A DNA stretch of 64,000 nucleotides from Thermoplasmatota archaeon. GTDB taxonomy: Archaea > Thermoplasmatota > Thermoplasmata > SG8-5 > JACRNV01. The stretch's first letter is position 1; each line of letters starts with the position of its first letter. The stretch lies in assembly GCA_040753455.1 (NCBI GenBank), contig JBFMEL010000001.1:5810-69809 (forward strand), given 5' to 3'. A program made the translations under genes and the position numbers. The notes beneath the pieces are model-generated. The model was not told the origin of the DNA. It worked only from the letters and a program-made list of their open reading frames with translations, and made no database searches. Shown here in pieces: positions 46,764 to 64,000 of the stretch.

Positions 46764-47210
46764 ATGGCAGAAGCGATCAGAGAGGCTGTCAAGGACGAGT
46801 GCCGTGATCTCCTGCAGGGAGCGGTCACGAAGCCAGAGCGCAGTCTCGTCGAGGAGTTGCGGGAGATGTGCGCCGAGAACCCATACGCCTGCTATCAATG
46901 TGGCACCTGCTCTGCTGGCTGCCCGTACATCGAGGAGATGGACCTCACACCTGATGAGGTCATAAGGCATGTGGTCATGGACAAGAAGGAGGTGCTGGGT
47001 TCAAAGACGATATGGCTCTGCAGCTCCTGCTACACCTGTGCCGAGCGCTGTCCCAGGGACCTGAACATCACCAAGATCATGGAGGCACTGCGCCAGATCG
47101 TGCTGCGCAAGAACGTGGATGCAACGAGCATCCCCTGCATCGCAGAGGAGAAGAGGAGGGGGATACCGCAGATCGCGTTCGTATGCCTCTTCAGAAAGAA
47201 CATCGGATGA
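46764..47210 (+). CDS. hdrC: Heterodisulfide reductase subunit C-like (2x[4Fe-4S])
   Basis: CYQCGTCSAGCP and CSSCYTCAERCP. Start placed at the Met with a GGAGGGA RBS. A TATA-like element lies at ~46670. Confidence 0.75.
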   Translation: MAEAIREAVKDECRDLLQGAVTKPERSLVEELREMCAENPYACYQCGTCSAGCPYIEEMDLTPDEVIRHVVMDKKEVLGSKTIWLCSSCYTCAERCPRDLNITKIMEALRQIVLRKNVDATSIPCIAEEKRRGIPQIAFVCLFRKNIG

Positions 47211-47211
47211 G

Positions 47212-48090: not shown

Positions 48091-48112
48091 ATCATGACAG
48101 GGAGGGGGCTCA

Positions 48113-48853
48113 TTGGCTGAGGCGGCTGTGGCTCATGCAAGGAACCGAGAGATGGAAGGCGCGGAGAAGAGGACATACGACATCTACATCATGGGAAAGA
48201 GGTACCAGGTGCCTGTGGGTCTGACGATCATGAGCGCGATAGAGTATGCGGGCTACCAGTTCATCCGTGGCTGCGGGTGCAGGGCAGGGTTCTGCGGCGC
48301 GTGTTCCACAGTGTATCGGAAGGAAGATGAGCAGAAGCTCCACTTCGTGCTGGCGTGCCAGACGCTGGTCGAGGACGGGATGTATCTCGTGCAGATTCCG
48401 TTCGTGCCCGCCACAAAAGCGCTTTACGACATCGCTGCCCTGAAACCCGAGGAGAACACCGTGCTCTCCATCTACCCGGAGATCGCCAGGTGCGTGGCAT
48501 GCAACACATGCACCAAGTCATGCCCGCAGGAGATCAACGTGATGATGTACATCCAGAACGCCCTGAGGGGGGATATCGCAAGAGCAGCAGAGATCTCGTT
48601 CGACTGCATACAGTGCGGGCTGTGCGCCATGCGGTGCCCTGCGGATATCAAGCACTATCATGTGGGGCAGTTAGTGAGGAGGCTGCGCGGAAAATACTTG
48701 GACAAAAGATCCGAGCAACTGAGGGCGCGTCTCGAAGAGGTGAGAAGCGGGAGATACAAGGCAGAGATCGATGGGATGCTCTCTTTGCCCATCCAGGAGC
48801 TGAAGCTGATGTACAAGAACAGGAAGCTCGAGGCAGGTGCAGAGGAGGACTGA
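48113..48853 (+). CDS. sdhB: Succinate dehydrogenase / fumarate reductase iron-sulfur subunit
   Basis: [2Fe-2S] GCGCRAGFCGACS, then CVACNTCTKSCP and CIQCGLCAMRCP. Confidence 0.75.
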   Translation: MAEAAVAHARNREMEGAEKRTYDIYIMGKRYQVPVGLTIMSAIEYAGYQFIRGCGCRAGFCGACSTVYRKEDEQKLHFVLACQTLVEDGMYLVQIPFVPATKALYDIAALKPEENTVLSIYPEIARCVACNTCTKSCPQEINVMMYIQNALRGDIARAAEISFDCIQCGLCAMRCPADIKHYHVGQLVRRLRGKYLDKRSEQLRARLEEVRSGRYKAEIDGMLSLPIQELKLMYKNRKLEAGAEED

Positions 48854-50507
48854 TCGCTTGAAGCTCATCGAGGGCTATCCAGAGTATATGTGGAACTCGA
48901 TTCAGAAGGTGGAGGAGACGAGGGAGAAGCGCGCGGGTGTGATCCCCAGAGCCATGAGCCCGGAGGAGCGCGAGGAGGTGCTGAGGAAGTTCCACCCTGA
49001 TTTCATGGAGGGCACACGCCGCGAGGTCAGGATCGGGGCTAACAAGAACGAACACATATACAACGAGATCGTGGACCTGATAGAGGCAAAGCCGAAGATC
49101 GAGCCGAAGGATATAGACCTCGGCAGGGTGGATTACGATGTGGACGTGCTGGTCATAGGGGGTGGAGGCGCTGGTACGGTCGCAGCGATCTTCGCTCATG
49201 AATCTGGGATCCCGGTGGATCGCATCCTGCTGTGCACGAAGCTCAGGCATGGGGATTCCAATTCGATGATGGCGCAGGGCGGGATACAGGCAGCGGACAG
49301 GCCTGGGGACAGCCCGGCGATCCACTTCTTGGACGCGTACGGCGGCGGGCATTTCACCAACAAGCCCGAACTGGTCAGCGCGCTGGTGCAGGACGCGCTG
49401 GAGGTAGTCAAGTGGCATGAGGAGCTGGGCGTGATGTACGACCGCACCGAGGAGGGGAACTTCGTGGAGCTCTCGGGCGGAGGCACATCGCGCAACCGCA
49501 TGCACTCTGCCAAGGACTACACCGGGATGGAGCTGATGAGGACGATCCGCGATCACGCGAGGAACCTGAGGATCCCTGTGCTGGAGTTCGCTCCTGTGGT
49601 CGAGCTGCTGATGGATGACCATGGTGCGGTCTCAGGGGGGGTTGCGGTAAACCTCGAGACCCAGGAATATTACGTGATCAGAGCCAAAGCCACGATCCTA
49701 GCCACCGGAGGAAGTGGACGACTGCACCTGGCTAACTACGCGACCACGAACCACTATGGTGCCACGGGGGACGGGCTAATCATGGCTTACCATGCGGGTG
49801 CGAAGCTGCGCGACCTGGACACGGCACAGATTCATCCCACGGGCGCTGCCTATCCCGAGGCGATAGTAGGGTTCCTGTGCACCGAGAAGATCAGGGGGCT
49901 GGGCGGGCAGCCCGTGAACAAGGACGGCGAGCTCTTCGTCTTCCCGCTGGAACCGAGGGACGTGGAATCCGCAGCGTTCATCAGGGAGTGCAGGGAGCGC
50001 GGCAAGGGGCTCGTGACCCCCACGGGAATGCCCGGGATATGGCTCGACACCCCGATGATCGATCTGCTGCACGGCAAGGGAACGATCGAGCGCTCGCTGG
50101 CTGCGATGGTGCGGCAGTTCAAGCGCGTGGGGATCGACATGGTGAAATATCCGATCTTCGTGTATCCAACGCTGCACTATCAGAATGGCGGGGTGGAGAT
50201 CAACGAGCGCTGTGAGACCGGTGTGCTGGGGCTCTTCGCGGCGGGAGAGGTCAGCGGAGGGGTGCATGGCAAGAACCGCCTGATGGGCAACTCGCTCCTG
50301 GATTACAACGTCTTCGGGCGCAGGGCAGGGAGATATGCTGCGGAGTATGCGAAGGATCGCACTGTGGGCAAACTCTCCCTTCATCATCTCGACCACTACA
50401 TGCACATGCTGGAAGGAGCCCATATTAGATTCGACAGGAGCGCGCCGATCATCCTGCCCGAGTACCGTGGTAAGGAGGCGCTCGCACGCGCCCTCGATGT
50501 GCTGTGA
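48837..50507 (+). CDS. sdhA: Succinate dehydrogenase / fumarate reductase flavoprotein subunit with a ~100-aa N-terminal extension
   Basis: FAD motif DVLVIGGGGAGTVAA, covalent-FAD region H..SNSMMAQGG, and the active-site HPTG. Confidence 0.85.
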   Translation: MQRRTDRLKLIEGYPEYMWNSIQKVEETREKRAGVIPRAMSPEEREEVLRKFHPDFMEGTRREVRIGANKNEHIYNEIVDLIEAKPKIEPKDIDLGRVDYDVDVLVIGGGGAGTVAAIFAHESGIPVDRILLCTKLRHGDSNSMMAQGGIQAADRPGDSPAIHFLDAYGGGHFTNKPELVSALVQDALEVVKWHEELGVMYDRTEEGNFVELSGGGTSRNRMHSAKDYTGMELMRTIRDHARNLRIPVLEFAPVVELLMDDHGAVSGGVAVNLETQEYYVIRAKATILATGGSGRLHLANYATTNHYGATGDGLIMAYHAGAKLRDLDTAQIHPTGAAYPEAIVGFLCTEKIRGLGGQPVNKDGELFVFPLEPRDVESAAFIRECRERGKGLVTPTGMPGIWLDTPMIDLLHGKGTIERSLAAMVRQFKRVGIDMVKYPIFVYPTLHYQNGGVEINERCETGVLGLFAAGEVSGGVHGKNRLMGNSLLDYNVFGRRAGRYAAEYAKDRTVGKLSLHHLDHYMHMLEGAHIRFDRSAPIILPEYRGKEALARALDVL

Positions 50508-50518
50508 GGTGCAGAGCC

Positions 50519-50779
50519 ATGATCACCGTATTAGAGGACTGGTGCAAGGGCTGCGCGATCTGCATCAAGCGCTGCCCGCGCGACGCGCTGGAGCTCTCCA
50601 CCAAGCTGAATAAGAGGGGCGTGTATCCCCCCAAGCTCAAGGAGGTGAACGACTGCAATTACTGCCGCCTCTGCGAGCTGCTCTGTCCTGATTTCGCGCT
50701 CAGTGTGACCCCTGACGAGGGGTACGTGCCCAAGGATTTCAAGAAGCTCATAATCGGAGGGATTGCAGGTGAGGTATAA
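50519..50779 (+). CDS. korD: 2-oxoacid:ferredoxin oxidoreductase delta subunit (2x[4Fe-4S] ferredoxin)
   Basis: CKGCAICIKRCP and CNYCRLCELLCP. Confidence 0.75.
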   Translation: MITVLEDWCKGCAICIKRCPRDALELSTKLNKRGVYPPKLKEVNDCNYCRLCELLCPDFALSVTPDEGYVPKDFKKLIIGGIAGEV

Positions 50780-50804
50780 GCGAGATCCTGAGAGGATCAG
50801 GAGG

Positions 50805-51953
50805 GTGTTGGGACCCAAGGTCCAGTTTATACAGGGTGATATGGCAATAACGCACGGCGCACTCCTCGCAGGCTGCTCCTTCTTCGCAGGATATCCGATC
50901 ACCCCTGCTTCTGAGGTCGCGGAAACAGCTGCACGTCTGTTCCCGAGGGCGGGCGGGATGTTCATACAGATGGAGGACGAGATCGCCAGCATCGGGGCGG
51001 TGATCGGCGCTGCATGGGGTGGCGCAAAGGCTATGACAGCCACATCTGGACCTGGATTCTCGCTGATGATGGAGAACTATGGGTACGCGGTGATGACCGA
51101 AACCCCATGCGTGATAGCGAACGTGCAGCGCACCGGTCCATCCACGGGGCAGCCGACGCTGGGCGCGCAGGGGGACATGATGCAGGTGAGATGGGGCTCG
51201 CACGGGGACATGGAAGCCATAGCACTGGCACCGAGCACCGTGCAGGAATCGCTGGACATGACGATCGAATCGTTCAACCTCTCTGAGAAGTACAGGCATC
51301 CAGTATGCCTGATGACCGATGGCGAGATCGGCCATCTGAGGGAAAAGGTGGTGATCCCAGGAGAGGAGGAGATGACCGTTGTTGAGAGGGTGACTGCCAC
51401 GATCGAGAAGGAGAAGTTCCTGCCCTTCACAGGATCGCAGACGAGGGACAGCAAGGTGCCCGACTTCCCCACCTTCGGCACAGGATACAGGACATATGTG
51501 ACTGGCTTGACGCACAACAAGAGGGGCTTTCCAGCCACGGACAAGCAGAAGGATCATGAGGAGCTGATCACGAGGATCGTGTCAAAGATCGCAGACGACA
51601 GGGAGGCGCTGACCTCTGTTGAGAGGATGCAACTGGACGATGCAGAGATTGCCTTCGTGACATATGGAGCAAGCGCTAGACCTGCCGAGACCGCGGTGGC
51701 GATGGGGAGAAAGAACAGGATCAGGGTCGGGATGCTGCGGCTCAAGGTTGTGTGGCCCTTCCCCAGGCACGTGATAGAGGCGCTGTCCAGGCAGGTGCAC
51801 AGGATCATCGTCGCGGAGATGAACTTAGGGCAGATCATGCACACTGTGAGGGAGTTCGCGGTGGACGACTGCGATGTTGTCTTGGCATCCAAGGTAGGCG
51901 GCGAGATGCACCTGCCGCACGAACTCTATGAATATCTGGAGGTGAAGGGATGA
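50805..51953 (+). CDS. korA: 2-oxoacid (2-oxoglutarate/pyruvate):ferredoxin oxidoreductase alpha subunit
   Basis: GDMAITHGALLAG..FAGYPITPASE is the OFOR alpha N-terminus. GTG/TTG start after AGGAGG. Confidence 0.85.
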   Translation: MLGPKVQFIQGDMAITHGALLAGCSFFAGYPITPASEVAETAARLFPRAGGMFIQMEDEIASIGAVIGAAWGGAKAMTATSGPGFSLMMENYGYAVMTETPCVIANVQRTGPSTGQPTLGAQGDMMQVRWGSHGDMEAIALAPSTVQESLDMTIESFNLSEKYRHPVCLMTDGEIGHLREKVVIPGEEEMTVVERVTATIEKEKFLPFTGSQTRDSKVPDFPTFGTGYRTYVTGLTHNKRGFPATDKQKDHEELITRIVSKIADDREALTSVERMQLDDAEIAFVTYGASARPAETAVAMGRKNRIRVGMLRLKVVWPFPRHVIEALSRQVHRIIVAEMNLGQIMHTVREFAVDDCDVVLASKVGGEMHLPHELYEYLEVKG

Positions 51954-52825
51954 TTACTGCTGAGCAACTGCGCGAGAAATATCTGCGGGACGGCATGCTG
52001 CCCACGATCTTCTGTGACGGCTGCGGTCATGGTTCCGCTATCGACTACACGCTGCATGCGATCGAGGAGCTCGGTCTGGACATGGACAGCGTGGCTTTAG
52101 CCTCAGGGATAGGCTGCTCCTCCCGCATCCCTGGCTACATCAATGTAGATGGGCTGCACACCACCCATGGCAGGGCGATAGCGTTCGCCACAGGGATCAA
52201 GGCTGCGAACCCTGATCTCACCGTGATCGTATTCACAGGGGACGGTGACTGCGCAGGGATAGGGGGGAATTACTTCATACACGCTGCCAGGAGGAACATA
52301 GACATCACCGTGATCCTGCTCAACAACTTCATCTATGGGATGACTGGAGGACAGCTCGCGCCCACCGCGCCGTTCAACAGCATCTCCACCACCTCTCCCT
52401 ACGGCAACATCGAGCAGGCGTTCGACCTCTGCGAGCTCGCGAAGGCGTTGGGTGCGGCGTACGTGGCGCGCTGGCCCATCCATTACCCCTACCAGCCGAT
52501 CAAGTCCATAAAGGAAGGGATTCAGAAGAGAGGGTTCGCGCTGATAGAGCTGATGTCCCCCTGCCCCACGGCATACGGCAGGAGGAACAAGTTAGGCGAG
52601 ATCGATGCACTGTGGAACTGGTACGAGGAGAACGTGATCCTCATCGAGGACTACGAGCGCGTGATGAGCTACGGCACCGAGGAGGAGAAGGTGCAGGTGA
52701 AGGGGAAGATGCAGATCGGGGTGTTTCAGAACACGGACAAGCCAGGGTTCTTCGAGGAGCACGAGAAGCTGGTGCGGCGCCTGATGGAGAAGGACGATGC
52801 CAAGCGCAAGGGGGGCTCAGTTTGA
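51950..52825 (+). CDS. korB: 2-oxoacid:ferredoxin oxidoreductase beta subunit (TPP-binding)
   Basis: FCDGCGHG cluster-binding motif and TPP motif GDGD. ATGA overlap with korA. Confidence 0.85.
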   Translation: MITAEQLREKYLRDGMLPTIFCDGCGHGSAIDYTLHAIEELGLDMDSVALASGIGCSSRIPGYINVDGLHTTHGRAIAFATGIKAANPDLTVIVFTGDGDCAGIGGNYFIHAARRNIDITVILLNNFIYGMTGGQLAPTAPFNSISTTSPYGNIEQAFDLCELAKALGAAYVARWPIHYPYQPIKSIKEGIQKRGFALIELMSPCPTAYGRRNKLGEIDALWNWYEENVILIEDYERVMSYGTEEEKVQVKGKMQIGVFQNTDKPGFFEEHEKLVRRLMEKDDAKRKGGSV

Positions 52826-52874
52826 CAGGGAGCAAAGGTCTGTGTCTCGGGTGCTGCACGCAGGGGGCGATGAA

Positions 52875-53414
52875 ATGAAGAAAGAGATAAGGATCGCGGG
52901 CTTCGGGGGTCAGGGCGTGGTGCTGGCAGGTGTCATCCTCGGCAGGGCTGCATGCGTGTATTCTGAGTACAACGCTGTGCAGAGCCAGTCCTATGGCCCA
53001 GAGGCAAGGGGTGGTGCGGCGAGATCCGAGGTCATCATATCCGATGAAAAGATCGGCTATCCCAGACCCACCAGTGTGGATCTGTTCGCTGCCATGGCGC
53101 AGGAGGCGTTCGACACCTATGTGAAGGACGTGAGAGAGGATACGATCATCATCATAGACCCAGACCTCGTGCCCCGTCATGATATCGGGCGCCCGCTGTA
53201 CAAAGTGAGGGCGCAGAAGATCGCTGAGGAGCTGGGGAATAAGGTGGTGACAAATATCGCAATGGTCGGCGGGATCACAGGGATCTTCACACTCTTGAGC
53301 CCGGAGGCTGTGAAGCAGGCGGTGATAGACTCCGTGCCCGCGCGCTTCAAGGAACTGAACGTCAAGGCGTTCGAGAAAGGCTTAGAGGCAGGTAGAGATG
53401 CCAGACCCGAGTGA
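52875..53414 (+). CDS. korG: 2-oxoacid:ferredoxin oxidoreductase gamma subunit
   Basis: MKKEIRIAGFGGQGVVLAG is the canonical gamma-subunit start. Confidence 0.8.
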   Translation: MKKEIRIAGFGGQGVVLAGVILGRAACVYSEYNAVQSQSYGPEARGGAARSEVIISDEKIGYPRPTSVDLFAAMAQEAFDTYVKDVREDTIIIIDPDLVPRHDIGRPLYKVRAQKIAEELGNKVVTNIAMVGGITGIFTLLSPEAVKQAVIDSVPARFKELNVKAFEKGLEAGRDARPE

Positions 53415-56400
53415 GATCATTCACAGGTACTACGAGGACGTCCCCCTTGCAGACGATTACCTCGTCCTTGTACCAGAGATCATGATGCTGGACGACGAGG
53501 TCTCAGAGGGATATGCCCCAGCCCTGAGGGCGGAGATGGCGATCCGCAGGATCAAGAGAACGATGGAGGGGGACGTGCTGGTCGTGGGTGCGGGCATCGC
53601 GGGCATGCAGGCTGCGCTCGACATCGCGGACAAGGGCTACAGGGTGGTGCTGGTGGAGAAATCCTCCACCATCGGGGGAAATATGGTCAAGCTGGACAAG
53701 ACCTTCCCCACCAACGACTGCTCGATCTGCACCTCCGCGCCGAAGATGGTGGAAGTATCAAGGCACCCGAACATCAAGCTGCTGACCTATGCCGAGCTCG
53801 CAAGGTTAGAGGGCAGTGCCGGAGACTTCACGGCTCATGTATACAGAAAGAGCAGGTACGTGGATCCCGAGAAGTGCACAGGCTGCGACGACTGCGCTGT
53901 GGTGTGCCCCGTGGAGATCGTCAATCCCTTCGATGAGCGCTTGTCCAAGCGCAAGGCGATATACATCGAGTTCCCGCAGGCTGTGCCCATCGTGTACACC
54001 ATCGATTACGAGCACTGCGTGGGCTGCGGCGCATGCGAGCGCGCGTGCGAGCCTGGCGCGATCTCCTTTCTACAGAAATCTGAAGATATAGAGGTAAGGG
54101 TGGGCAGCGTCATCGTCGCCACGGGCTACGAGCTCTTCGAGCCCCTGGAGATGCGCAGAGAGTATGGATATGGAAAATATTCAAATGTAATTACAGCGAT
54201 GCAGTTCGAGCGCCTCTTATCCTCCTTCGGACCCACTGAGGGAAAGGTCAGACGCCCGTCGGACGGTGCCAAGCCCAGGTCTATCGCATGGATCCAGTGC
54301 GTTGGGTCGAGGAGCAAGCAGCTCGGGTTCCCGTACTGCTCCAGGGTCTGCTGCATGTACGCGACCAAGGAAGCCTCGATCACTAAGGAGGCAGAGCCAG
54401 ATACAGATATCACGATATTCTACATGGACCTCCGCGCCTATGGGAAGGACTTCCAGCAGTATTACGAGGATGCCAAGAAACTGGGCGTGAACTATGTGCG
54501 TGCTCGCCCCTCCTCCATATACCAGAACGAGGACAAGAGCATCACGATCAGGTACATGGACACCCACACCAGGGAGGTGAAGGAAAAAACTGTGGACCTG
54601 CTGGTGCTCTCCACAGCGATCATGCCGTCGAGGGAGAACAAGCGCCTTGCCAGCGTTCTGGGGATAGAGGTGGACGAGAGCGGTTTCTTCAGGGCAAGAT
54701 CCACAGTCACTGACCCTATCGCCTCCACGCGCGATGGCGTCTACCTTGCAGGCTGCATCCAGGGTCCGAAGGACATCCCGGACAGCGTGGCGATGGGCAG
54801 CGGTGCAGCCGCGAGAGCCATGGTGCCGATCATTGGAAGGGCGAAGACCGCGCCGCCACCCCCGCCGCCGGAGAGGGACGTGAGCTCAGAGCCTCCTAAG
54901 ATAGGGGTATTTGTCTGCCACTGCGGCAAGAACATCGCCAACTACGTGGATGTGGAGGCTGTGACCAGGTACGCGCAGTCCCTGCCTAACGTGGTGTACG
55001 CCACGCACGAGATGTTCGTCTGCTCCGAGGATATCCAGAAGAAGATCAAGGAGCAGATCAAGGAGGAGGGGCTGAACAGGGTCATTGTGGCGGCATGCTC
55101 CCCGCGCACCCATGGTCCCCTGTTCCAGGATACGATGGTCGCAGCAGGGCTGAACAAGTACCTCTTCGAGATGGCGAACATCCGCAACCAGTGCTCGTGG
55201 GTGCACTCTCACGAGCCCGAGAGGGCGACACAGAAATCCAAGGGGTTGGTGGCGATGGCAGTGACCAGGGCATCGCTGCTCGAGCCACTAACGGAGAGCG
55301 ATTTCACGGTGATTCCAAGGACGCTGGTGATCGGTGGAGGGCTGTCCGGGATGAGGGCAGCGATCGCGCTGTCAGAGATGGGGATCGAATCGTTCATCGT
55401 CGAGCGGGAAGAGGAGCTGGGTGGCATCCTCAAACACCTTCATTCCCTATTCCCCGCAGAGACCAAAGCCTCGGATATCATAGAGCCGCTCATCACCAGG
55501 GTGAAGAACGATCCACGCATCACCGTGTACACTGGGGCGGAGCTGCTCAGCGTCGAGGGTTTCATCGGCAACTTCAAGGCTAAGCTCAACACGCACGAGG
55601 GCGAGAAGGAGATAGAGTTCGGCACTGCGATCATCGCCACAGGGTTCAGGGAGATTGACCTCAAGGGGAGATACGCTCATGGCACGCATCCCGGGATCGT
55701 CACACAGACAGAGCTCGAGAGGATGCTGAAGGAGGGCACGGTGCCCCCACTAAAGCACGTGGTGATCATCAACTGCGCAGGTGCGATGGACGACGAGCGC
55801 CCGTACTGCTGCCGCATAGGCTGCGGCGTCTCGATAAAGAACGCGAAACTGCTCAAGGATATCAATCCCAACATGGAAATAACCATCCTCTACCGCGACA
55901 TCAGAGTGTTCGGGAAGGACGAGGAGGAATACTACGGGCGCGTGATAGAAGACAAGAGGGTGAAGATCATACGGTACCTGAAGGAAGAACAGCCAGCAGT
56001 ATCCGTGAGCGAGAAGGGTGATTTAGGCGTCAGGGTGAGGGATGCTGTGTACGGTGATGAGTTCGAGCTGCCCGCGGACCTGGTGGTGCTCACTGCTCAG
56101 ACAGAGGGAGGTGCTGATGTCGAGCGGCTTAAGAAGATGCTGAAGGTGCCCACTGACGCAGGCGGCTTCTTCACCGAGGCACATGCAAAGATACGCCCCC
56201 TGGATTTCGCTTCAGATGGTGTGTATGTGTGCGGCAGTGCCCACTATCCCAAGAACCTCGCGGACACGATCGCGCAGGCTGAGGGTGCTGCATCGCGCGC
56301 TGCGATACCGATACTGCGGGGGATGGTCAGGGGAGAGGGCATAGTATCCTCCATAGACCCGGACAGATGCTCGGGCTGCGGTCTCTGCGTCGGCGTATGC

Positions 56401-56562
56401 CCTTACGGCGCCATCTCCCTGGAGAGGGGTGTGGGGGTGGTGAACGTCGCGCTCTGCAAGGGCTGCGGCGCCTGTGCAGCCATCTGCCCATCGGGCAGCG
56501 CCAGGCAGATGGGATACAGGGACAACCAGATCTTAGCGATGTTAGGGGCTGCGATGACGTAG
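53398..56562 (+). CDS. hdrA: Giant (1054 aa) tandem-duplicated heterodisulfide reductase subunit A-like flavoprotein
   Basis: Two successive FAD-dependent HdrA modules (VLVVGAGIAGMQAALD and TLVIGGGLSGMRAA). Each has inserted ferredoxin CxxCxxCxxxCP motifs. An internal HdrA N-terminal Cys cluster (VFVCHCGKNIA) is present. Confidence 0.8.
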   Translation: MPDPSEIIHRYYEDVPLADDYLVLVPEIMMLDDEVSEGYAPALRAEMAIRRIKRTMEGDVLVVGAGIAGMQAALDIADKGYRVVLVEKSSTIGGNMVKLDKTFPTNDCSICTSAPKMVEVSRHPNIKLLTYAELARLEGSAGDFTAHVYRKSRYVDPEKCTGCDDCAVVCPVEIVNPFDERLSKRKAIYIEFPQAVPIVYTIDYEHCVGCGACERACEPGAISFLQKSEDIEVRVGSVIVATGYELFEPLEMRREYGYGKYSNVITAMQFERLLSSFGPTEGKVRRPSDGAKPRSIAWIQCVGSRSKQLGFPYCSRVCCMYATKEASITKEAEPDTDITIFYMDLRAYGKDFQQYYEDAKKLGVNYVRARPSSIYQNEDKSITIRYMDTHTREVKEKTVDLLVLSTAIMPSRENKRLASVLGIEVDESGFFRARSTVTDPIASTRDGVYLAGCIQGPKDIPDSVAMGSGAAARAMVPIIGRAKTAPPPPPPERDVSSEPPKIGVFVCHCGKNIANYVDVEAVTRYAQSLPNVVYATHEMFVCSEDIQKKIKEQIKEEGLNRVIVAACSPRTHGPLFQDTMVAAGLNKYLFEMANIRNQCSWVHSHEPERATQKSKGLVAMAVTRASLLEPLTESDFTVIPRTLVIGGGLSGMRAAIALSEMGIESFIVEREEELGGILKHLHSLFPAETKASDIIEPLITRVKNDPRITVYTGAELLSVEGFIGNFKAKLNTHEGEKEIEFGTAIIATGFREIDLKGRYAHGTHPGIVTQTELERMLKEGTVPPLKHVVIINCAGAMDDERPYCCRIGCGVSIKNAKLLKDINPNMEITILYRDIRVFGKDEEEYYGRVIEDKRVKIIRYLKEEQPAVSVSEKGDLGVRVRDAVYGDEFELPADLVVLTAQTEGGADVERLKKMLKVPTDAGGFFTEAHAKIRPLDFASDGVYVCGSAHYPKNLADTIAQAEGAASRAAIPILRGMVRGEGIVSSIDPDRCSGCGLCVGVCPYGAISLERGVGVVNVALCKGCGACAAICPSGSARQMGYRDNQILAMLGAAMT

Positions 56563-56582
56563 GGAGAATGACGATAATGTGA

Positions 56583-57029
56583 TTGATGGAGGTTGCATGG
56601 ATGGACGAGAAAAACGGTTTCGAGCCGAAGATCATCGGGTTTCTCTGCAACTGGTGCAGCTATGCCGGTGCAGACCTGGCAGGGGTGAGCAGGATCCAGT
56701 ACCCGCCCAACGTGCGGGTAATAAGGGTCATGTGCTCCAGCAGGGTGGACCCTATCTTTGTGCTCAGGGCATTGACGGATGGAGCAGACGGCGTATTGAT
56801 AGCAGGCTGTCATCCTGGTGATTGCCATTACATCGAGGGGAACTACCGCACGAGGCGGAGGGTTGCTGCACTGAAAAGGATCCTCGAGAAGTATGGGCTG
56901 AGCGACAGGCTCTTCCTTGAATGGGTGAGCGCAAGCGAGGGAAAGAAGTTCGCGGAGGTGGTGACAAAGGTCACCAACACCATCAAGGAGCTTGGACCAA
57001 ACCCGCACAGAAAGATATGGGAGATCTAG
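56583..57029 (+). CDS. mvhD: MvhD/FlpD-like [2Fe-2S] subunit
   Basis: [17 protein letters not shown]...[10 protein letters not shown] is the MvhD signature. Confidence 0.8.
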   Translation: MMEVAWMDEKNGFEPKIIGFLCNWCSYAGADLAGVSRIQYPPNVRVIRVMCSSRVDPIFVLRALTDGADGVLIAGCHPGDCHYIEGNYRTRRRVAALKRILEKYGLSDRLFLEWVSASEGKKFAEVVTKVTNTIKELGPNPHRKIWEI

Positions 57030-57039
57030 GGGTGAAAGG

Positions 57040-58062
57040 ATGCCTACGTATAAAATAGAGGAGAGGGAAATCCAGAGGATCCTCGAACATCTGCTGGTCA
57101 AGGGTATCGTCGAAGGGGTCATGCTCCAGGTCAGGGGGGAGCATGGTGTCTTTACAGCCCTCGTCGCAGATCCTGCACGTATCGCAAGTGCTGTGCCGCT
57201 GGCTCCGCTGTTCTCCGGCAACACCGCCGTCTACCTTCAGAACAATGGAAGGAGGAAGATCGCAGTTGTGGTGAAGCCGTGCGAAGCCAGGGCGATCAAC
57301 GAGCTGAAGAAATTAAATCAGATAAACCTGGACGATCTCATCGTGATATGCAGCGACTGCCTGGGGACGGTGGATCCCAAGGGGGTCACGGAGCCGCTGA
57401 CCGATGCAAAAAAGAAGGAGCTCATGAGGAGCGCGTGCAGGGTCTGCGAGCACTTCACGCCCCCAGAGGTGGATCTCAGCATCCTGACCATTGGGACTGG
57501 GGATGGGTGCATCGTTGCCACTGAGAGGGCAGAGCTCCTCGAAGGCTTGAACCTGAGGTGTGAGGAGATCCCAGAGGCACGGGAGCACGAGATCCAAAAG
57601 ATCCGAAAGGAGCGGCTCAAGCACAAGGAAGAGATGACCAAGGAGATGATAAAAAAGTTATCTGCTCCAGGTTCGCTTGCAGAGGCATTGAGCCACTGCA
57701 TACGCTGCGACAACTGCAGGGAGGTGTGCCCACTCTGCTACTGCAAGGAATGCTACTTCGAAACCCCTTTGGGGGATCTAAGAACAGACGGGATGCTGCA
57801 TCAGGCAGCGATAAAAGGGATACTGAGAGTTCCCCCGGACATCCTTTTCTATCATCTCACCAGGCAGATCCATGTCGCCGCGGGATGCGTGGGATGCGGA
57901 GCATGCGAAGAAGCATGCCCGAGAGAGATCCCCCTGCTGTCGATATGGAAGGCGGTGGCACCTGATGTCCAGGCGCTGTTCGACTATGTGGCAGGGATGG
58001 AGAAGGACGTGCCGCTGCCCATGGTGCAGTTCAAAGAGGAAGAGCTCGAAGAGGTGAAGTGA
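57040..58062 (+). CDS. FrhB/FdhB-family (coenzyme F420-reducing hydrogenase beta subunit-like) iron-sulfur flavoprotein
   Basis: FrhB-type N-terminal domain plus C-terminal CIRCDNCREVCP and CVGCGACEEACP. Start at MPTYKI. Confidence 0.7.
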   Translation: MPTYKIEEREIQRILEHLLVKGIVEGVMLQVRGEHGVFTALVADPARIASAVPLAPLFSGNTAVYLQNNGRRKIAVVVKPCEARAINELKKLNQINLDDLIVICSDCLGTVDPKGVTEPLTDAKKKELMRSACRVCEHFTPPEVDLSILTIGTGDGCIVATERAELLEGLNLRCEEIPEAREHEIQKIRKERLKHKEEMTKEMIKKLSAPGSLAEALSHCIRCDNCREVCPLCYCKECYFETPLGDLRTDGMLHQAAIKGILRVPPDILFYHLTRQIHVAAGCVGCGACEEACPREIPLLSIWKAVAPDVQALFDYVAGMEKDVPLPMVQFKEEELEEVK

Positions 58063-60047
58063 GGTTGGAGGGAGCTACGAAGATAGGCGTATACGTCTGC
58101 GAGTGCGGGATCAATATCTCAGCCGCTGTGGACGTGGCAAAGGTCGCAGAGCATGCAAAGGGATTGCCTGATGTTGTGGTGAGCAGGTACTACAAATACA
58201 TGTGCTCCGACCCTGGACAGTCCCTCATAAAGAATGATATAAAGGAGATGGGGCTCACCCACGTGGTGGTAGCCTCCTGCTCCCCGAGGATGCACGAGCC
58301 CACCTTCAGAGCGGTGGTCGAGGAGGGGGGGGTGAACCCCTACTGCTTCGAGATGGCGAACATCAGGGAGCACTGCTCCTGGGCGCACATGCGTGAAAAG
58401 GATAAGGCGACAGAGAAAGCAAAGGACCTGGTGAGGATGGCCGTAGCCAAGGCAAGGCTGCTTCGACCGCTGCAGAGAAAGCAGGTGCCCGTCACGCCCG
58501 CCGCGCTGGTGATCGGGGGTGGGATCGCAGGCATACAAGCCGCGCTGGAGATCGCAGAGAGCGGGTTCAAGACCTACCTGGTAGAGCGGACACCGAGCAT
58601 CGGGGGTCGCATGGCGCAATTAGACAAGACCTTCCCCACACTGGACTGCTCCGCCTGCATCCTCACACCTAAGATGGTGGATGTCGCCAGGCACCCCAAC
58701 ATCGAGCTGCTCACATACTCGGAGGTCACGGGTGTCGAGGGATACATCGGCAACTTCAAGGCGACAGTAAAGAAGAAAGCCAGATATGTGGACATAGACA
58801 AATGCGTGGGCTGCGGTCGGTGCGCCGAGGCATGCAGGCTAAAGGGACGTGTAGCCGACGAGTTCAATGAGAAACTCGGCAAACGCAGTGCGATATACGT
58901 GCCGTTTCCTCAGGCAGTGCCGCTGAAGTACACGATCGACCCAGAGCGTTGCATATTTTTAAAGACTGGTAAATGCGGCGACTCCCCGCTGTGCGTGGAA
59001 GCCTGTGAGGCAAATGCCATCGACCATCAGCAGAAAGATGATGTCGTTGACCTTGAAGTGGGCACCATCGTTGTGGCGACAGGCTTCGATCTATACGATC
59101 CATCCCAGAAACCAGAATACGGGTATGGAAAGATCAAAAATGTGATCACTGGCTTGGAGTTCGAGAGGCTCGTATCCGCCTCTGGTCCCACAGGGGGGCA
59201 CATCGAGGTAAACGGTAAGGAGCCCAGGAGGGTGGTCTTCATCCAGTGCGTGGGATCGAGGGACAAGGAGGGCAACGAGTACTGCTCGCGCGTGTGCTGC
59301 ATGTACACAGCCAAGCACGCGCATCTCGTGAGGGAGAAGATCCCCGGCGCCAATGTCACGATCTATTATACCGATGTAAGAGCCTTTGGTAAAGGTTTCG
59401 AGGAGTTCTACAACAGGGTGAAGGGCGAGGGCGTTGCATACCGCAGAAGGGAGCTGGACGATGCCATCGAGGTCGTGGAGGATGATGGCAGGACCATCGT
59501 CAAAGCCCAGGGCCACGAAGATATAGAGGCAGACTTGGTGGTGCTGGCGACCGCGATCGTTCAGCGAACAGATATCGAAGAGCTTGCCAGGGTGTTGAAG
59601 GTCTCACGCGGTGCAGACGGCTTCTTCCTGGAGATTCATCCAAAACTAAGACCCATGGACACTGCCACCGGAGGGATATTCATAGCAGGCTGCTGCCAGT
59701 CCCCAAAGGATATCCCTGACACGGTCGCGCAGGCGAGCGGTGCGGCAGCCAAGGCATCGATACCCCTCTCGCAGGGGAAGATCGATCTAGACCCCCAGAG
59801 GTCTGAGGTCATCGATGAGAACTGCGACGGCTGCGCATACTGCATAGAGCCGTGTCCGTTCAAGGCACTGACATTAATCGAGTATATGCGGGATGGCGCG
59901 ATCAAGAAGACGGTGGAAGCAAATGAGGCTCTGTGCCAGGGCTGCGGTGTCTGCCAAGCCACGTGTCCCAAACAGGGGATCATCGTGAGAGGGTTCACGA
60001 CCAAGCAGATCTCTGCAATGGTCGATGCCCTTCTCGGGGTGGTGTAG
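58059..60047 (+). CDS. hdrA: Heterodisulfide reductase subunit A
   Basis: N-terminal Cys cluster [13 protein letters not shown] motif [13 protein letters not shown], and inserted ferredoxin domains. GTGA overlap start. Confidence 0.9.
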   Translation: MRLEGATKIGVYVCECGINISAAVDVAKVAEHAKGLPDVVVSRYYKYMCSDPGQSLIKNDIKEMGLTHVVVASCSPRMHEPTFRAVVEEGGVNPYCFEMANIREHCSWAHMREKDKATEKAKDLVRMAVAKARLLRPLQRKQVPVTPAALVIGGGIAGIQAALEIAESGFKTYLVERTPSIGGRMAQLDKTFPTLDCSACILTPKMVDVARHPNIELLTYSEVTGVEGYIGNFKATVKKKARYVDIDKCVGCGRCAEACRLKGRVADEFNEKLGKRSAIYVPFPQAVPLKYTIDPERCIFLKTGKCGDSPLCVEACEANAIDHQQKDDVVDLEVGTIVVATGFDLYDPSQKPEYGYGKIKNVITGLEFERLVSASGPTGGHIEVNGKEPRRVVFIQCVGSRDKEGNEYCSRVCCMYTAKHAHLVREKIPGANVTIYYTDVRAFGKGFEEFYNRVKGEGVAYRRRELDDAIEVVEDDGRTIVKAQGHEDIEADLVVLATAIVQRTDIEELARVLKVSRGADGFFLEIHPKLRPMDTATGGIFIAGCCQSPKDIPDTVAQASGAAAKASIPLSQGKIDLDPQRSEVIDENCDGCAYCIEPCPFKALTLIEYMRDGAIKKTVEANEALCQGCGVCQATCPKQGIIVRGFTTKQISAMVDALLGVV

Positions 60048-60461
60048 ATGACGAACGATCATGAGCCCCTGCTCGTGGCATTCTGCTGCAACTGGTGCTC
60101 GTACGCAGGCGCTGATTTAGCCGGCACATCCAGAACCCAGTATCCGCCCAATGTCAGGATAATAAGGGTGATGTGCTCAGGGATGGTGCACCCCAACCTT
60201 GTGATCGACACGCTCACCAAGGGCGCTGATGGCGTCCTGATGTGCGGCTGTCATCCCGGTGATTGCCACTACATCGAGGGGAATCTAAGGGCTGAGAAGC
60301 GCGCGGAGGCGATACGTCTCATGCTGGAGGACATGGGGTTTGAACCTGAACGATACAGGTTGGAATGGATCTCTGCCTCGGAAGGGCAGCGGTTCGCCGA
60401 GGTCGTGAAAGAGATGGTCGAACAATTGAAGGCGCTAGGTCCGAACCCATACAGGGCGTAG
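60048..60461 (+). CDS. mvhD: MvhD/FlpD-like subunit (second copy)
   Basis: [17 protein letters not shown]...[10 protein letters not shown]. Confidence 0.85.
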
Positions 60462-60529
60462 GTGATCATACGAGCAATGAGGCGGATGTATCAGGCGGCG
60501 AGGTCGCGACGACCAACGATAAACCAAGG

Positions 60530-61792
60530 GTGGGCGTATACGTCTGCGAGTGCGGGATCAATATCTCAGCCACTGTGGATGTGCCTGAGGTCGCAGAGGA
60601 TGCAAAGGGATTGCCTGATGTGGCAGTGAGCAGGTACTACAAATACATGTGCTCCGACCCTGGGCAGTCCCTCATAAAGAATGATATAAAGGAGCTCGGG
60701 CTCACCCACGTGGTGGTAGCCTCCTGCTCACCGAGGATGCACGAGCCCACCTTCAGAGCAGCGGTCGAGGAAGCGGGAGTGAACCCCTACTGCTTCGAGA
60801 TGGCGAACATCAGGGAGCACTGCTCCTGGGCGCACATGCATGAAAAGGATAAGGCGACAGAGAAAGCAAAGGACCTGGTGAGGATGGCCGTAGCCAAGGC
60901 AAGGCTTCTTCGGCCCATAGAAAAGATGCGTGTGCCCGTCACCCCCGCCGCACTGGTGATTGGTGGGGGGATCGCAGGCATACAAGCCGCGCTGGACATA
61001 GCAGACAGAGGGTTCAAGACCTACCTGATAGAGCGGACACCGAGCATCGGGGGTCGCATGGCGCAATTAGACAAGACCTTCCCCACACTGGACTGCTCCG
61101 CCTGCATCCTCACGCCCAAGATGGTGGATGTCGCCAGGCACCCCAACATCGAACTGCTCACATACTCGGAGGTCGCCGGGATCGGTGGATATGTAGGCAA
61201 TTACAAAGTGAAGGTCAAGAAGAAGGCAAGATCGGTGGACGGATCGAAATGTACCGGGTGCGGGCTGTGCACAGAGCACTGCCCAGTGATCCTTCAGCCG
61301 CAGATACAGGAGATGCCAAAAGAGGCGCCTTCTGTGAGAGACAAGGAATTCATCGAGGGGCTGATCGCCAAGCATTCGCATCTTAAGGCTCCTGTGGTGC
61401 AGATCCTGCTGGACGTGAACGAGAAATACAGATACCTTCCAAAGGAGATCCTGAGATATCTCTCCTTTAGGCTGGAGATGCCGCTGAGCACCATATACAG
61501 AGTCGCTACCTTCTATAAAGCGCTCAGTCTCGAAATGAGGGGGAAATACCATATAAAAGCCTGCCTGGGCACCGCCTGCCACGTGAGAGGCGCCAGAAAG
61601 GTCGTTGACGCGATCAGGGACTACATCGCCAAGACAGAAGAAGGGCTCTTCTCCCTCGAGCCCGTGAACTGCCTCGGCGCATGCGCCCTTGGTCCTATCA
61701 TGGTGGTGAACGAGGAGTACCATGGACACATGACCATCGACAAGGTAGCTGAAATACTCACATCCCTGGAGGGAGGCAATGAAAAAGATTAA
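60530..61792 (+). CDS. Chimeric protein: N-terminal ~240 aa of HdrA fused to a NuoE-like thioredoxin-fold [2Fe-2S] domain
   Basis: The first ~700 nt are ~93% identical to hdrA at 58083-58790. The C-terminus has NuoE/HoxF-type motifs [10 protein letters not shown]...[12 protein letters not shown] start at 60530. Confidence 0.7.
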
Positions 61793-63644
61793 GAACCCCG
61801 AAGAACTGAGAAACCTGCGAAAGGCGATCCAGGATGGAAAGGACCCAGATAAAACAGTCGTTACTGTTTGCAAGGGCACGGGGTGTGTAGCATCCGGGTC
61901 CGAGCCCCTCATCAACGCCTTCAGGGAAGAGATAGAAAAGCGGAAGATCCAGGACAGGGTCGAGGTGCGGGTCACCGGGTGTCATGGTTTCTGTGAAAAA
62001 GGGCCTATCGTCGTCATATATCCCAGCAGGATATTCTATCCCATGGTCATCCCGGAGAAGGTGCCTGCTATTATCTCCGAGACGGTGCTTGAGAACAGAA
62101 TCATCGAGGATATGCTATATGTCGATCCCACCACGGGTGAGAAGATCATCTATGAGCATGATGTCCCGTTCTACAAGAAGCAGACCAGAACGATCCTGGC
62201 CAACAACGGACTGATAGATCCAACGAGCATAGAAGATTACATCGGTACGGGCGGTTATTTCGCGCTCGCAAAAGCACTTACCAGTATGACGCCAGAAGAG
62301 ATCATCAGCGAGGTCAAAGCCTCTGGGTTGAGGGGGCGCGGGGGCGCAGGTTTCCCCACAGGGGTCAAATGGGAGTTCTGCAGAGCTGCGAAGGGCGAGC
62401 AGAAGTACATCATCTGCAACGGTGACGAGGGCGATCCCGGTGCCTACATGGACAGGAGCGTGCTGGAGGGCAATCCGCACAGCGTGATAGAGGGGATGAT
62501 CATAGGAGCCTATGCCATAGGTGCGAGCAAGGGCGTAGCCTATGTGAGAGCCGAGTATCCGCTGGCAGTCCATAACCTCGACATTGCGATCAACCAGGCA
62601 AAGGAGCTCGGCTTGCTGGGCGACAACATCCTTGGAAGCGGGTTTGATTTCGAGCTCTGGATTTACAGAGGTGGTGGAGCCTTTGTGTGCGGCGAAGAAT
62701 CTGCTCTTATCGCATCGATCGAGGGCAGGTCGGGGGAACCGAGACAGCGCCCGCCGTTCCCTGCGCAGTCCGGGCTCTGGGGCTGCCCCACGAATATCAA
62801 CAATGTGGAGACATGGGCGAACGTTCCCCACATCATAAGCAGGGGGGCTGAGTGGTATGCCAGCATCGGGACCGAGAGCAGCAAGGGCACGAAGATCTTC
62901 TCGCTCGTGGGGAAGGTGAACAATACCGGTCTGGTGGAGGTGCCCTTTGGCACAACGCTGAGGACGATCATATTCGAGATCGGTGGGGGCATTCCGGGGG
63001 CTCGAAAATTCAAGGCGGTACAGTCCGGAGGACCATCGGGGGGATGCATCCCTGCTGAACATATAGATACCCAGGTCGATTACGCGGAGCTTACCAAGCT
63101 GGGCTCGATCATGGGCTCCGGCGGTTTGATCGTCATGGACGAGGACACATGCATGGTCGATGTTGCCAGATACTTCATATCCTTCACCCTGGACGAATCC
63201 TGCGGGAAGTGCACGTCGTGCAGGGAAGGCAACGCCCAGATGTTAGAGATGCTGAAGGATATCTGCGATGGCAAAGGCAAGGAGAGCTACCTGCCCATGC
63301 TCGAGGAACTGTGTGGGTACATCAAGGAGACCTCGATGTGCGCCCTCGGGGGCACAGCCCCGAACCCTGTGCTCACCACACTGAGATATTTCAGGGACGA
63401 ATATATGGCTCACATACAAAGGAAAGAATGCCCTGCCAAGGTGTGCAAAGCCCTGATCTTTTATCAGATTGACCCAGAGAAATGCACTGGATGCGGCATG
63501 TGCGCCAAGAAATGCCCGATGGGCGCCATATCAGGGGAGAGGAGGCAGCCACATGTGATAGACAGGGAGATATGCACGAGATGTGGCACGTGCCATGCCA
63601 CGTGCAAGTTCGATGCCATCCTTGTCAGGACAGGAGGGGGTTGA
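61779..63644 (+). CDS. nuoF: NuoF-like NAD(H)-binding FMN iron-sulfur subunit with an N-terminal thioredoxin-like [2Fe-2S] domain and C-terminal 2x[4Fe-4S]
   Basis: [15 protein letters not shown] (FMN/NADH site), [10 protein letters not shown] ([4Fe-4S]), and C-terminal [12 protein letters not shown] / [11 protein letters not shown]. Confidence 0.85.
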
Positions 63645-63646
63645 AC

Positions 63647-64000
63647 ATGGTGACTGTAGAGCTCGACGGCACTAAGTTCGATGTCGATGAAGGCATGACC
63701 GTCCTCGATGCTGCCAGGAAACACAACATCGAGATCCCCACCCTCTGCTACAACAAGGCGCTCTCTCCTTACGGCGCATGCCGCCTGTGCGTGGTGGAGA
63801 TACTGAGCGCGAGGGGAGCGCAGTTAGCATCTGCGTGCACGTATCCAGTATCCGAGGGGCTGAGGGTGATCACAAACTCCGAAAAGGTGCAGAAGAGCAG
63901 AAGGCTGACGCTCGAACTATTACTAGCGCGCTGCCCGGAGGAGGAAGTGGTAATCAACCTGGCAAAGGAGCATGGGATCAGCGAGACGAGGTTCAAGAAG
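63647..64000 (+). CDS. NuoG/formate-dehydrogenase/HndD-like subunit, N-terminal [2Fe-2S] ferredoxin domain (3'-truncated by the window end)
   Basis: MVTVELDGTKFDVDEGMTVLDAARKHNIEIPTLCY...CRLC is the standard NuoG-type 2Fe-2S N-terminus. An RBS GGAGGGGG lies upstream. Confidence 0.55.
   Translation, partial: MVTVELDGTKFDVDEGMTVLDAARKHNIEIPTLCYNKALSPYGACRLCVVEILSARGAQLASACTYPVSEGLRVITNSEKVQKSRRLTLELLLARCPEEEVVINLAKEHGISETRFKK

Follow-up and report, generated by a model that had tools for sequence, protein, structure and literature searches.

An HdrA divided around NuoEFG-like genes in a Thermoplasmatota operon and a possible Hdr-Bfu complex

HdrA and MvhD, subunits of heterodisulfide reductase (Hdr) systems, have already been found joined to NuoEFG-like proteins, both in the purified class II benzoyl-CoA reductase BamBCDEFGHI (Bam) and in the Bfu family, and PMC9304861 presents Bam as the sole characterised enzyme combining an HdrA module with a Bfu module. 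Clusters of the order nuoEFG-mvhD-hdrA are also known from Desulfotignum phosphitoxidans (PMC4046663). This work concerns an operon found in 64,000 nucleotides of Thermoplasmatota DNA (the window; contig JBFMEL010000001.1 of assembly GCA_040753455.1, positions 5,810 to 69,809 of the forward strand). At its end, one HdrA is encoded in two halves by genes that flank bfuB, each half being fused to another Bfu subunit. The earlier note on this DNA, made from the sequence alone, had called the arrangement not a textbook one; it is true that no characterised enzyme has this gene order, but HdrA/MvhD together with NuoEFG are known from Bam, Bfu, and Desulfotignum. The presence of HdrA and NuoEFG in one operon is not new, whereas for the split with its double fusion no description was found in the searchable literature, and an earlier one may exist elsewhere. 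The comparison covers 87 fetched loci (L numbers), annotated by our own domain BLAST, 80 of them fetched with the BfuB of the window as query; L001 is a contig of the metagenome-assembled genome (MAG) GCA_016214785.1.

Bam of Geobacter and Desulfosarcina shares with the window a tandem HdrA (BamE), an MvhD (BamF), and BfuCBA (BamGHI); in Bam these are encoded in a single operon and were purified together as one complex. The tandem HdrA of Bam has the same domain order, and BamH of Desulfosarcina is 57-58% identical to the BfuB of the window. However, BamG (150-178 aa) and BamI (~200 aa) are plain, short NuoE- and NuoG-like proteins and HdrA is unsplit, whereas in the window these subunits are fused and HdrA is split. 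The window lacks AOR-type BamB, BamC, and the fused HdrD-type BamD, which rules out that the operon is Bam itself, and no AFOR_N/AFOR_C protein was found among its 17 genes or the other window ORFs (open reading frames) of at least 540 aa. Unlike Bam, the window has separate HdrC and HdrB, an additional intact HdrA, a second MvhD, and an FdhB-like subunit.

The FlxABCD-HdrABC system of Desulfovibrio is also NADH-linked and was proposed to bifurcate electrons; its NADH module is unrelated to BfuBC of the NuoEF type, and to our knowledge it contains no gene fusion or split. The MvhAGD-HdrABC, Fdh-Hdr-Fmd, and Elp-Hdr complexes of methanogens have HdrA, the MvhD connector, and HdrBC in common with the window. 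In these complexes the ferredoxin-like domain inserted in HdrA, anticipated as the electron exit, is where FmdF/MvhB binds, so that the low-potential exit is hard-wired to this polyferredoxin (PMC12350162), whereas the window has Bfu at this place. Methanogen HdrA is a single chain and the complexes have no NAD(H) module, in contrast to the split HdrA and NAD(H) module of the window. The window, in turn, has no ElpA/FdhA and no hydrogenase genes (Pfam found no molybdopterin-family gene in the operon), its HdrA, HdrB, and HdrC do not reach the equivalog cut-offs of NCBIfam, and its host is not a methanogen. A predicted "type III HdrA", found with mvhADG, has a GltD NADH domain inserted beside the inserted ferredoxin domain, repurposing the site of ferredoxin reduction (PMC12054007). 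An NAD(H)-reactive module thus stands at the same HdrA site as Bfu in the window, but it is one GltD domain in one polypeptide, whereas the window has a three-gene FMN/Fe-S cassette and a protein in two chains. The BfuABC family (HydABC, NiFe-HydABCSL, NfnABC, Wor-Bfu, and the predicted Por-Bfu and Codh-Bfu) shows the same full cofactor signature of BfuB and BfuC. A possible likeness to the predicted Por- and Codh-Bfu lies in the 2-oxoacid:ferredoxin oxidoreductase (OFOR) genes upstream in the window and in CooS downstream in L001. What sets the window apart is that the "third-substrate" domain on BfuA is one HdrA half and that BfuC bears the other; the accessible part of the 2022 Bfu classification contains no fusion of an HdrA half to BfuA or BfuC.

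One HdrA in two chains

ORFs were called on the window, and domains were assigned with Pfam and NCBIfam profiles. The following genes carry the split:

60530-61792 (long ORF 60365-61792), forward strand: N-half of the split HdrA fused to a BfuC/NuoE-like [2Fe-2S] domain (HdrA model positions 1-259, then NuoE), here called the chimera
61779-63644, forward strand: BfuB, a HydB-type NuoF homologue (Complex1_51K 159 bits, NADH_4Fe-4S 108 bits, N-terminal 2Fe-2S, C-terminal 2x4Fe-4S)
63647-64000 and past the window edge, forward strand: BfuA (NuoG-N, a NuoG/HoxU-like [2Fe-2S] part) fused to the C-half of HdrA, start only (full product P0391, 598 aa)

The chimera and the last gene encode two halves of one HdrA, with NuoE, NuoF, and NuoG-N between them and fused to both. 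Over its first 118 aa, P0391 does not differ from the ORF in the window, and it is encoded on the same 77,233-bp contig as MEW5936252.1, which is 100% identical to the intact HdrA of the window. The same identity was found between the FrhB-like protein and P0124, and both database proteins belong to a MAG named "Candidatus Thermoplasmatota archaeon" at NCBI, so the archaeal host assumed before is correct. Residues 185-594 of P0391 match positions 248-642 of the HdrA2 model, while the chimera covers HdrA model positions 1-259, and there is no redundancy between them. In a PDB sequence search, the N-terminal part of the chimera matched residues 2-260 of 5odc_A with 422 bits; the same search found no split-HdrA fusion chain among solved structures. 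The L001 homologue of the last gene (607 aa) is built alike, with residues 1-180 resembling NuoG-N and residues 189-598 corresponding to HdrA model positions 252-646. The earlier note had seen an HdrA-Nterm::NuoE chimera and a truncated NuoG-like subunit; these domains are real, but the two proteins are the halves of a split HdrA and the last gene encodes NuoG-N::HdrA-C, as what follows position 64000 within the gene is, according to P0391, the HdrA C-half. This continuation also rules out that the 118-aa fragment, whose top NCBIfam match is FeFe_hydrog_A6, begins a subunit of the [FeFe]-hydrogenase, formate dehydrogenase, or GltD type.

When the halves are aligned with intact HdrAs, the break falls within the inserted ferredoxin domain, between its two Cys motifs. 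Motif 1 (CxxCxxCxxxC) is present only in the chimera, which also holds the N-terminal cluster domain and the first part of the FAD domain with its GxGxxG motif (GGGIAG). Motif 2 (Cx8CxxCxxxC) is present only in the BfuA fusion, followed by the remainder of the FAD domain and the C-terminal ferredoxin domain. CCMYTAK and MEFER/EFER are found in P0391; by motif, CCMYTAK and EFER would correspond to K409 and E356, the HdrA residues of flavin-based electron bifurcation named in PMC12054007. The five-domain layout of HdrA is seen in the intact 662-aa protein of the operon, and the split copy has all five domains over its two chains. Judged from the motifs, neither half can bind FAD alone, and because the FAD motifs are divided over two chains, the halves would have to co-assemble.

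The most likely start of the chimera is GTG 60530, the sole in-frame start after the mvhD stop, which gives a protein of 420 aa; its relatives are mostly 417-447 aa long and cover ~88% of the long ORF. The ATG at 60365 was rejected, since the 55 additional residues overlap mvhD and most relatives lack them. P0001 retains a similar N-terminal extension, which may have been kept through conservation of the overlapping mvhD frame.

The split genes are under purifying selection. Between the window and L001, synonymous differences (pS) reach ~0.77, which is saturated, and nonsynonymous differences (pN) ~0.15, for both parts of the chimera, for BfuB, and for the N-terminus of BfuA. Neither HdrA fragment has lost a Cys or flavin motif, in archaea or in bacteria, at identities of 50-78%. 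The intact hdrA (58059-60047) and the N-half of the split one also share a repeat:

58086-58385 and 60533-60832, forward strand: direct repeat of 300 nt, 94% identical, intact hdrA versus split hdrA N-half

The pS between these paralogues is 0.24 in the window compared to 0.80 in L001. In the C-half, residues ~324-427 of P0391 show almost unbroken identity (roughly 90 aa) to residues ~398-501 of the intact HdrA. These data point to concerted evolution of the intact hdrA with both split halves and to recent gene conversion in this lineage.

The identification of the NuoE- and NuoF-like parts proved robust, and these are not generic ferredoxins. Residues 28-614 of BfuB align end to end with HydB of Acetomicrobium mobile (7t2r_B, 876 bits), a subunit of the structurally characterised bifurcating NiFe-HydABCSL, and the Cys motifs are conserved in the printed alignment. 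BfuB contains Complex1_51K, NADH_4Fe-4S, 2Fe-2S_thioredx, and two Fer4 domains, with an FMN/NAD(H) site. The BfuC part (long-ORF residues 331-468) matches PF01257 with 131.8 bits and HydC (7p5h_C) with an E value of 5e-36, and its Cx4C and Cx3C motifs are present. The N-terminal part of P0391 (BfuA-N) has a Fer2_4 [2Fe-2S] domain and two CxxCxxCxxxC motifs; its closest PDB match is the short BfuA 9mqx_A, and the HxxxCxxCxxxxxC motif of the His-type cluster is absent from P0391. In the 2022 Bfu classification, Type-2 BfuA has the clusters A1, A2, and A4, and electrons enter Type-2 Bfu by A4. The motifs of BfuA-N match this Type-2 pattern, and the second [4Fe-4S] motif, ~20-30 residues before the HdrA segment, is taken as the putative A4.

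Related loci in archaea and bacteria

Three architectures join Bfu and HdrA genes among the closest relatives of BfuB. The Bam-type has the order HdrD-like, tandem HdrA, MvhD, plain NuoE (150-178 aa), BfuB, and short BfuA (~200 aa); of the 80 loci that the BfuB of the window retrieved, 14 have this order wholly or partly. In the Desulfosarcina variabilis locus L062, BamB, BamC, and BamD are all present, AOR-type BamB and BamC lying upstream. Type A is the split HdrA of the window; it is complete in L001, L003-L005, L023, L086 (GCA_030670795.1), and L087 and partial, at contig limits, in L002 and L022. The chimera and BfuA::HdrA-C occur together in 8 of the 8 type A loci with both positions on the contig, as they do in the window through P0391, and nothing in L002 or L022 contradicts this pairing. 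Type B has a tandem HdrA resembling BamE, the first module of which is broken at this same point, resulting in FADa::NuoE (~295 aa) and BfuA::insFd-FADb::full HdrA (~1080-1115 aa). Type B is complete in L006, L055, L073, L077, and L078, whereas L082 and L027 show parts of it.

Each HdrA half forms more than 100 distinct clusters at 90% identity in public data. Clustering at 50% identity gave about four type A and three type B clusters among the best 150 matches, the rest being ordinary or tandem HdrAs. The archaeal sources of the halves include Thermoplasmatota, Promethearchaeota, Heimdallarchaeaceae (Asgard), Theionarchaea, Methanofastidiosia, and Syntropharchaeia; the bacterial ones include Spirochaetales (Spirochaetota), Planctomycetota/Thermoguttaceae, Gemmatimonadota, and Dehalococcoidia and Anaerolineae (Chloroflexota).

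The block hdrA-chimera-bfuB-bfuA::hdrA-C-mvhD-frhB-like is conserved across phyla. Recurrent neighbours of types A and B are an intact hdrA, mvhD, an FrhB-like gene, and hdrC-hdrB, often together with mvhG-mvhA and hyp/hycI. The hdrC-hdrB pair directly precedes the split-HdrA module in L003, L006, L023, L027, and L082, mvhG-mvhA follows it in L003, L004, L077, and L082, and in L001 and L087 a gene for a [NiFe] large subunit lies downstream on the opposite strand. L003 and L023 have no intact hdrA beside the module, just hdrCB, the split hdrA, and mvhD (with mvhGA in L003); therefore, the split protein must serve as HdrA there. The exact order of 14 genes was found in just one other MAG, that of L001.

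The BfuB of the window is only 59% identical to that of L001, compared to 73% for the flanking chimera and 82% for HdrA, and the nearest BfuB in GTDB (67% identical) belongs to the type B locus L006. This suggests that BfuB has been exchanged between modules. In L086, the chimera of which is 78% identical to that of the window, BfuB is fused to a GltD/NfnB-like Pyr_redox_2 domain (L086:2377-5541, 1054 aa), a domain that might bring an NADP(H) site into the complex. BfuB homologues of 1036-1082 aa in L015, L021, L057, L059, and L076 (MAGs of Aminicenantes, Anaerolineales, and Myxococcales) are further fusions.

In L001, the gene right after the module encodes CooS, the anaerobic CO dehydrogenase (TIGR01702, 701 bits); CooS is also present in L078, but is absent in L086. 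Downstream of Bfu modules, CooS was located at L001:14983-16899 (Thermoplasmatota, type A) and L078:16819-17214 (Spirochaetia, type B), and downstream of plain Bfu in Pirellulales at L064:5937-7340 and L084:6093-6665. A Codh-Bfu association is reported for Firmicutes in the 2022 classification; as CooS stands beside Bfu in three unrelated lineages, this association reaches beyond Firmicutes. Genes for PHP-domain, DRTGG, CBS, and HATPase_c proteins follow the module in two Thermoplasmatota relatives (L001:16990-20371, L086:7409-9686), and similar CBS/HATPase genes interrupt it in the Thermoguttaceae-like locus L003. This set may be a regulatory unit.

The remaining genes of the operon

The run of co-directional genes on the forward strand extends from 46680 to the window end and comprises 17 packed or overlapping genes, the widest gap being 68 nt. 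Besides the genes listed above, it contains:

46680-47210, forward strand: HdrC-like subunit with 2x[4Fe-4S] (Fer4_17/Fer4_8; TIGR03290 CoB_CoM_SS_C 80 bits, cut-off 160)
47119-48090, forward strand: HdrB-like protein with two CCG domains (PF02754 CCG, two stretches, 75.6 bits)
48113-48853, forward strand: SdhB/TfrB-N-like Fe-S protein with [2Fe-2S] and [4Fe-4S] motifs (Fer2_4, Fer2, Fer4_9; weak TfrB and dhsB matches)
48837-50507, forward strand: TfrA/SdhA-like FAD flavoprotein of the fumarate reductase family (FAD_binding_2 244.6 bits)
50504-53414, forward strand: four-subunit OFOR (Fer4, POR_N and PFOR_II, TPP_enzyme_C, POR), with delta 50504-50779, alpha 50763-51953, beta 51950-52825, and gamma 52797-53414, order kept in L001
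53398-56562, forward strand: tandem HdrA ("type II", BamE homologue), 1054 aa, three HdrA stretches
56583-57029, forward strand: MvhD copy 1, [2Fe-2S] connector (PF02662 FlpD 186 bits)
57040-58062 (ORF from 56992), forward strand: FdhB/ElpB-like (FrhB-family) Fe-S protein (weak FrhB_FdhB_C, and Fer4_8)
58059-60047, forward strand: intact five-domain HdrA (type I), 662 aa (HdrA2 model positions 1-641, 837 bits)
60048-60461, forward strand: MvhD copy 2 (PF02662, 189 bits)

The cluster had been described as eight genes beginning at 53398. These eight genes and their domains are all supported by the ORFs, Pfam, and NCBIfam, and so is hdrCB upstream (46680-48090), but the packed run begins at 46680, where hdrC, hdrB, the SdhB-like and TfrA/SdhA-like genes, and the four OFOR genes precede the eight. 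Within this run, 7 kb lie between the end of the OFOR genes and bfuC.

The tandem HdrA has the order FADa-insFd-FADb | Nterm-FADa-FADb-CFd; its first module is devoid of the N-terminal and C-terminal ferredoxin domains and its second module of the inserted one. Compared from end to end with the tandem HdrAs of Bam-type loci, including L062, it shows 42-45% identity, and on this similarity it is assigned as a BamE homologue; a sequence search of a PDB copy found no tandem HdrA chain. Its counterpart in a survey from 2025 is the "type II HdrA", which clusters with MvhD and FdhB in methane-cycling archaea (PMC12054007). The 662-aa HdrA scores 837 bits compared to a cut-off of 1100 (HdrA2) and 620 compared to 1400 (HdrA), and the tandem HdrA 1045 compared to 1100. 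The window HdrAs are thus members of the family, not equivalogs of methanogen HdrA/HdrA2.

The protein between mvhD copy 1 and the intact hdrA matches FrhB_FdhB_C weakly (27.6 bits) and FrhB_FdhB_N not at all. The annotated product P0124 has 340 aa, which sets its start at ~57040. Its AF2 model (pLDDT, predicted local distance difference test, 87.2) has FdhB (7bkb_E) and ElpB (8rvu_E) as best PDB folds (template modelling scores 0.75 and 0.74, E ~1e-18), and its invariant Cys groups fit several [4Fe-4S] clusters. In methanogen complexes, the FdhB/ElpB-type subunit oxidises F420H2 and electrons pass via MvhD/ElpC to HdrA (PMC12350162). As the gene adjoins mvhD and the protein resembles FdhB/ElpB in its modelled fold, it is probably a donor-arm subunit, with a putative flavin. 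A dedicated F420-dependent FrhB was rejected as weakly supported, given the profile matches and the FdhB/ElpB-like fold. Where two FrhB modules had been proposed before, there is only one FrhB-like gene, and the F420 link is not supported, as it depended on the weak FrhB match; the subunit is conserved in bacterial loci too.

The HdrB-like protein scores 140 bits with TIGR03288 (cut-off 345) and 119 bits with the model of the SdhE-type fumarate reductase anchor. The TfrA/SdhA-like protein, whose gene is syntenic in L001, scores 325 bits with the TfrA model NF004900 (cut-off 718). The four genes hdrC-hdrB-SdhB-like-TfrA/SdhA-like (46680-50507) look like a thiol:fumarate reductase (TfrAB) spread over four genes or like a succinate dehydrogenase of type E. 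Besides an Hdr role, or in its place, the "hdrCB" pair may serve fumarate reduction.

Upstream, at 39081-46071 on the reverse strand, lie genes for EtfA with an N-terminal 2x[4Fe-4S] ferredoxin domain (39081-40793), putative EtfB (40271-41239), and acyl-CoA dehydrogenase (44794-46071), which suggests a second bifurcating system, of the Etf type, beside the operon. Just upstream of the redox region lies a gene for a STAND NTPase of 1090 aa with many TPR repeats in a row (41419-44691, forward strand), and a GvpD-like P-loop protein (28555-30195, reverse strand) farther upstream; for neither is a link to the finding obvious.

Electron paths, alternatives, and significance

We lean, if only slightly, towards the view that the operon encodes a hard-wired hybrid Hdr-Bfu complex with two bifurcating stages. 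This view starts from the observed fusions, cofactor motifs, conserved neighbours, and purifying selection, while co-assembly, electron path, direction, and substrates are what we infer. A bfuC-bfuB-bfuA cassette would lie inside hdrA, in frame at both ends, to give HdrA(N)::BfuC, BfuB, and BfuA::HdrA(C). The HdrA halves would reassemble into one FAD-binding protomer, probably paired with the intact HdrA encoded upstream. Since the split separates one Cys motif of the inserted ferredoxin domain from the other, the Bfu module would be tethered at the low-potential electron exit of HdrA. The donor arm (the FdhB/ElpB-like flavoprotein with MvhD, or MvhAG hydrogenase in the bacterial relatives) would pass electron pairs to the FAD with which HdrA bifurcates. 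The high-potential electron would go through HdrC/HdrB to a disulfide, possibly linked to the TfrA/SdhB-like fumarate reductase. The low-potential electron would pass through the split ferredoxin domain and BfuA to the BfuBC core, which would exchange electrons with NAD(H) and ferredoxin. The system could equally run in reverse (confurcation), e.g., in a fermenter. The tandem BamE-like HdrA with its own MvhD might constitute a second stage or a separate unit. A more specific picture, that of an "operon inside a gene", takes bfuCBA to be set in frame in hdrA, the FAD site of HdrA to be joined through a two-chain ferredoxin domain to the FMN/Fe-S "flavobicluster" site of Bfu, the low-potential branch of HdrA to lead to or from NAD+/ferredoxin, and the type B fusions to mark where BamGHI docks on BamE; we consider it tenable, at somewhat less than even chances.

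Several points weigh against the hybrid Hdr-Bfu complex. Its halves are only inferred to co-assemble, and it is odd in energetic terms that electrons already at low potential should enter another bifurcating core. In PMC9304861, Schut et al. propose the opposite role for Bfu in Bam, where it would supply HdrA with mid-potential electrons; the site of the fusion speaks against this direction without settling it. No member of the split-HdrA/Bfu family is characterised, and no [NiFe]-hydrogenase subunit gene was found in 46680-64000, although mvhD is present twice. HdrB and HdrC fall below the methanogen equivalog cut-offs and are encoded beside fumarate-reductase-like genes, which makes a disulfide no more than a putative high-potential acceptor. 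BfuB also looks exchangeable, considering its 59% identity to L001 and the BfuB::GltD fusion in L086.

The alternative which assumes the same fusions and the reverse direction is an NADH-driven bifurcating Hdr. Here the NuoEFG-like proteins would oxidise NADH, alone or confurcated with reduced ferredoxin, and deliver mid-potential electrons to the FAD of HdrA, which would reduce a disulfide via HdrBC and a very low-potential acceptor (ferredoxin, CooS, or a reductive 2-oxoacid oxidoreductase). This is the model proposed for the homologous BamGHI/BamE pair in PMC9304861, and the Desulfotignum clusters were likewise read as NADH-to-ferredoxin devices (PMC4046663). The similarity of the tandem HdrA to the BamE-type (42-45%) and of BfuB to Desulfosarcina BamH (57-58%) speaks for it, as do OFOR upstream and CooS downstream in L001 and L078, both near -500 mV. 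However, the cassette sits in the domain known from structures as the exit rather than where electrons enter by MvhD, the genes beside the module conserve a donor arm of their own (FdhB/ElpB-like with MvhD, or MvhAG in relatives), and BfuB retains the additional clusters typical of ferredoxin-coupled HydB, not of a plain NADH dehydrogenase. The NADH-fed HdrA that the earlier note had in mind is thus not what the anatomy favours, and we regard it as rather unlikely.

It is improbable that the operon encodes independent enzymes with no supercomplex, i.e., a tandem-HdrA/MvhD/FdhB-like Hdr dependent on F420H2 or a similar donor, an HdrA/MvhD unit, and a BfuABC of the Por- or Codh-type. Type II HdrA-MvhD-FdhB clusters do stand alone in methane-cycling archaea (PMC12054007), loci resembling Por-Bfu or Codh-Bfu without HdrA were seen in L009, L030, L067, L064, and L084, and CooS comes and goes between L001 and L086. 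Yet the Bfu subunits are covalently fused to HdrA halves, neither of which would bind FAD alone, and the block of hdrA, split module, mvhD, and frhB-like gene is kept across phyla. The gene order is also exactly what would be left if a nuoEFG-like cassette had landed in a duplicated hdrA, with the intact copy adjoining and the flanking fragments decaying. Such a dead hdrA is hardly credible in view of the Cys and flavin motifs, all kept at 50-78% identity in archaea and bacteria, the loci without an intact hdrA beside the module, and the more than 100 clusters at 90% identity per half; pN far below pS likewise led us to reject the pseudogene reading.

[quoted passage not shown] Since type B splits a BamE-like tandem HdrA at the same point, its fusions would indicate the docking site of BamGHI on BamE and so be a Rosetta stone for class II benzoyl-CoA reductase. 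Databases list one half under the name "NAD(P)H-dependent oxidoreductase subunit E" and the other under "(2Fe-2S)-binding" or "4Fe-4S dicluster" proteins; therefore, surveys of HdrA and metabolic reconstructions would miss them. As the module spans Asgard archaea and Thermoplasmatota to Planctomycetota, Spirochaetota, and Chloroflexota, often beside Mvh-type hydrogenase genes, it may be a common and overlooked route in sediments and the subsurface, connecting H2 (or F420H2), NAD(H), ferredoxin, and a thiol/disulfide or fumarate couple.

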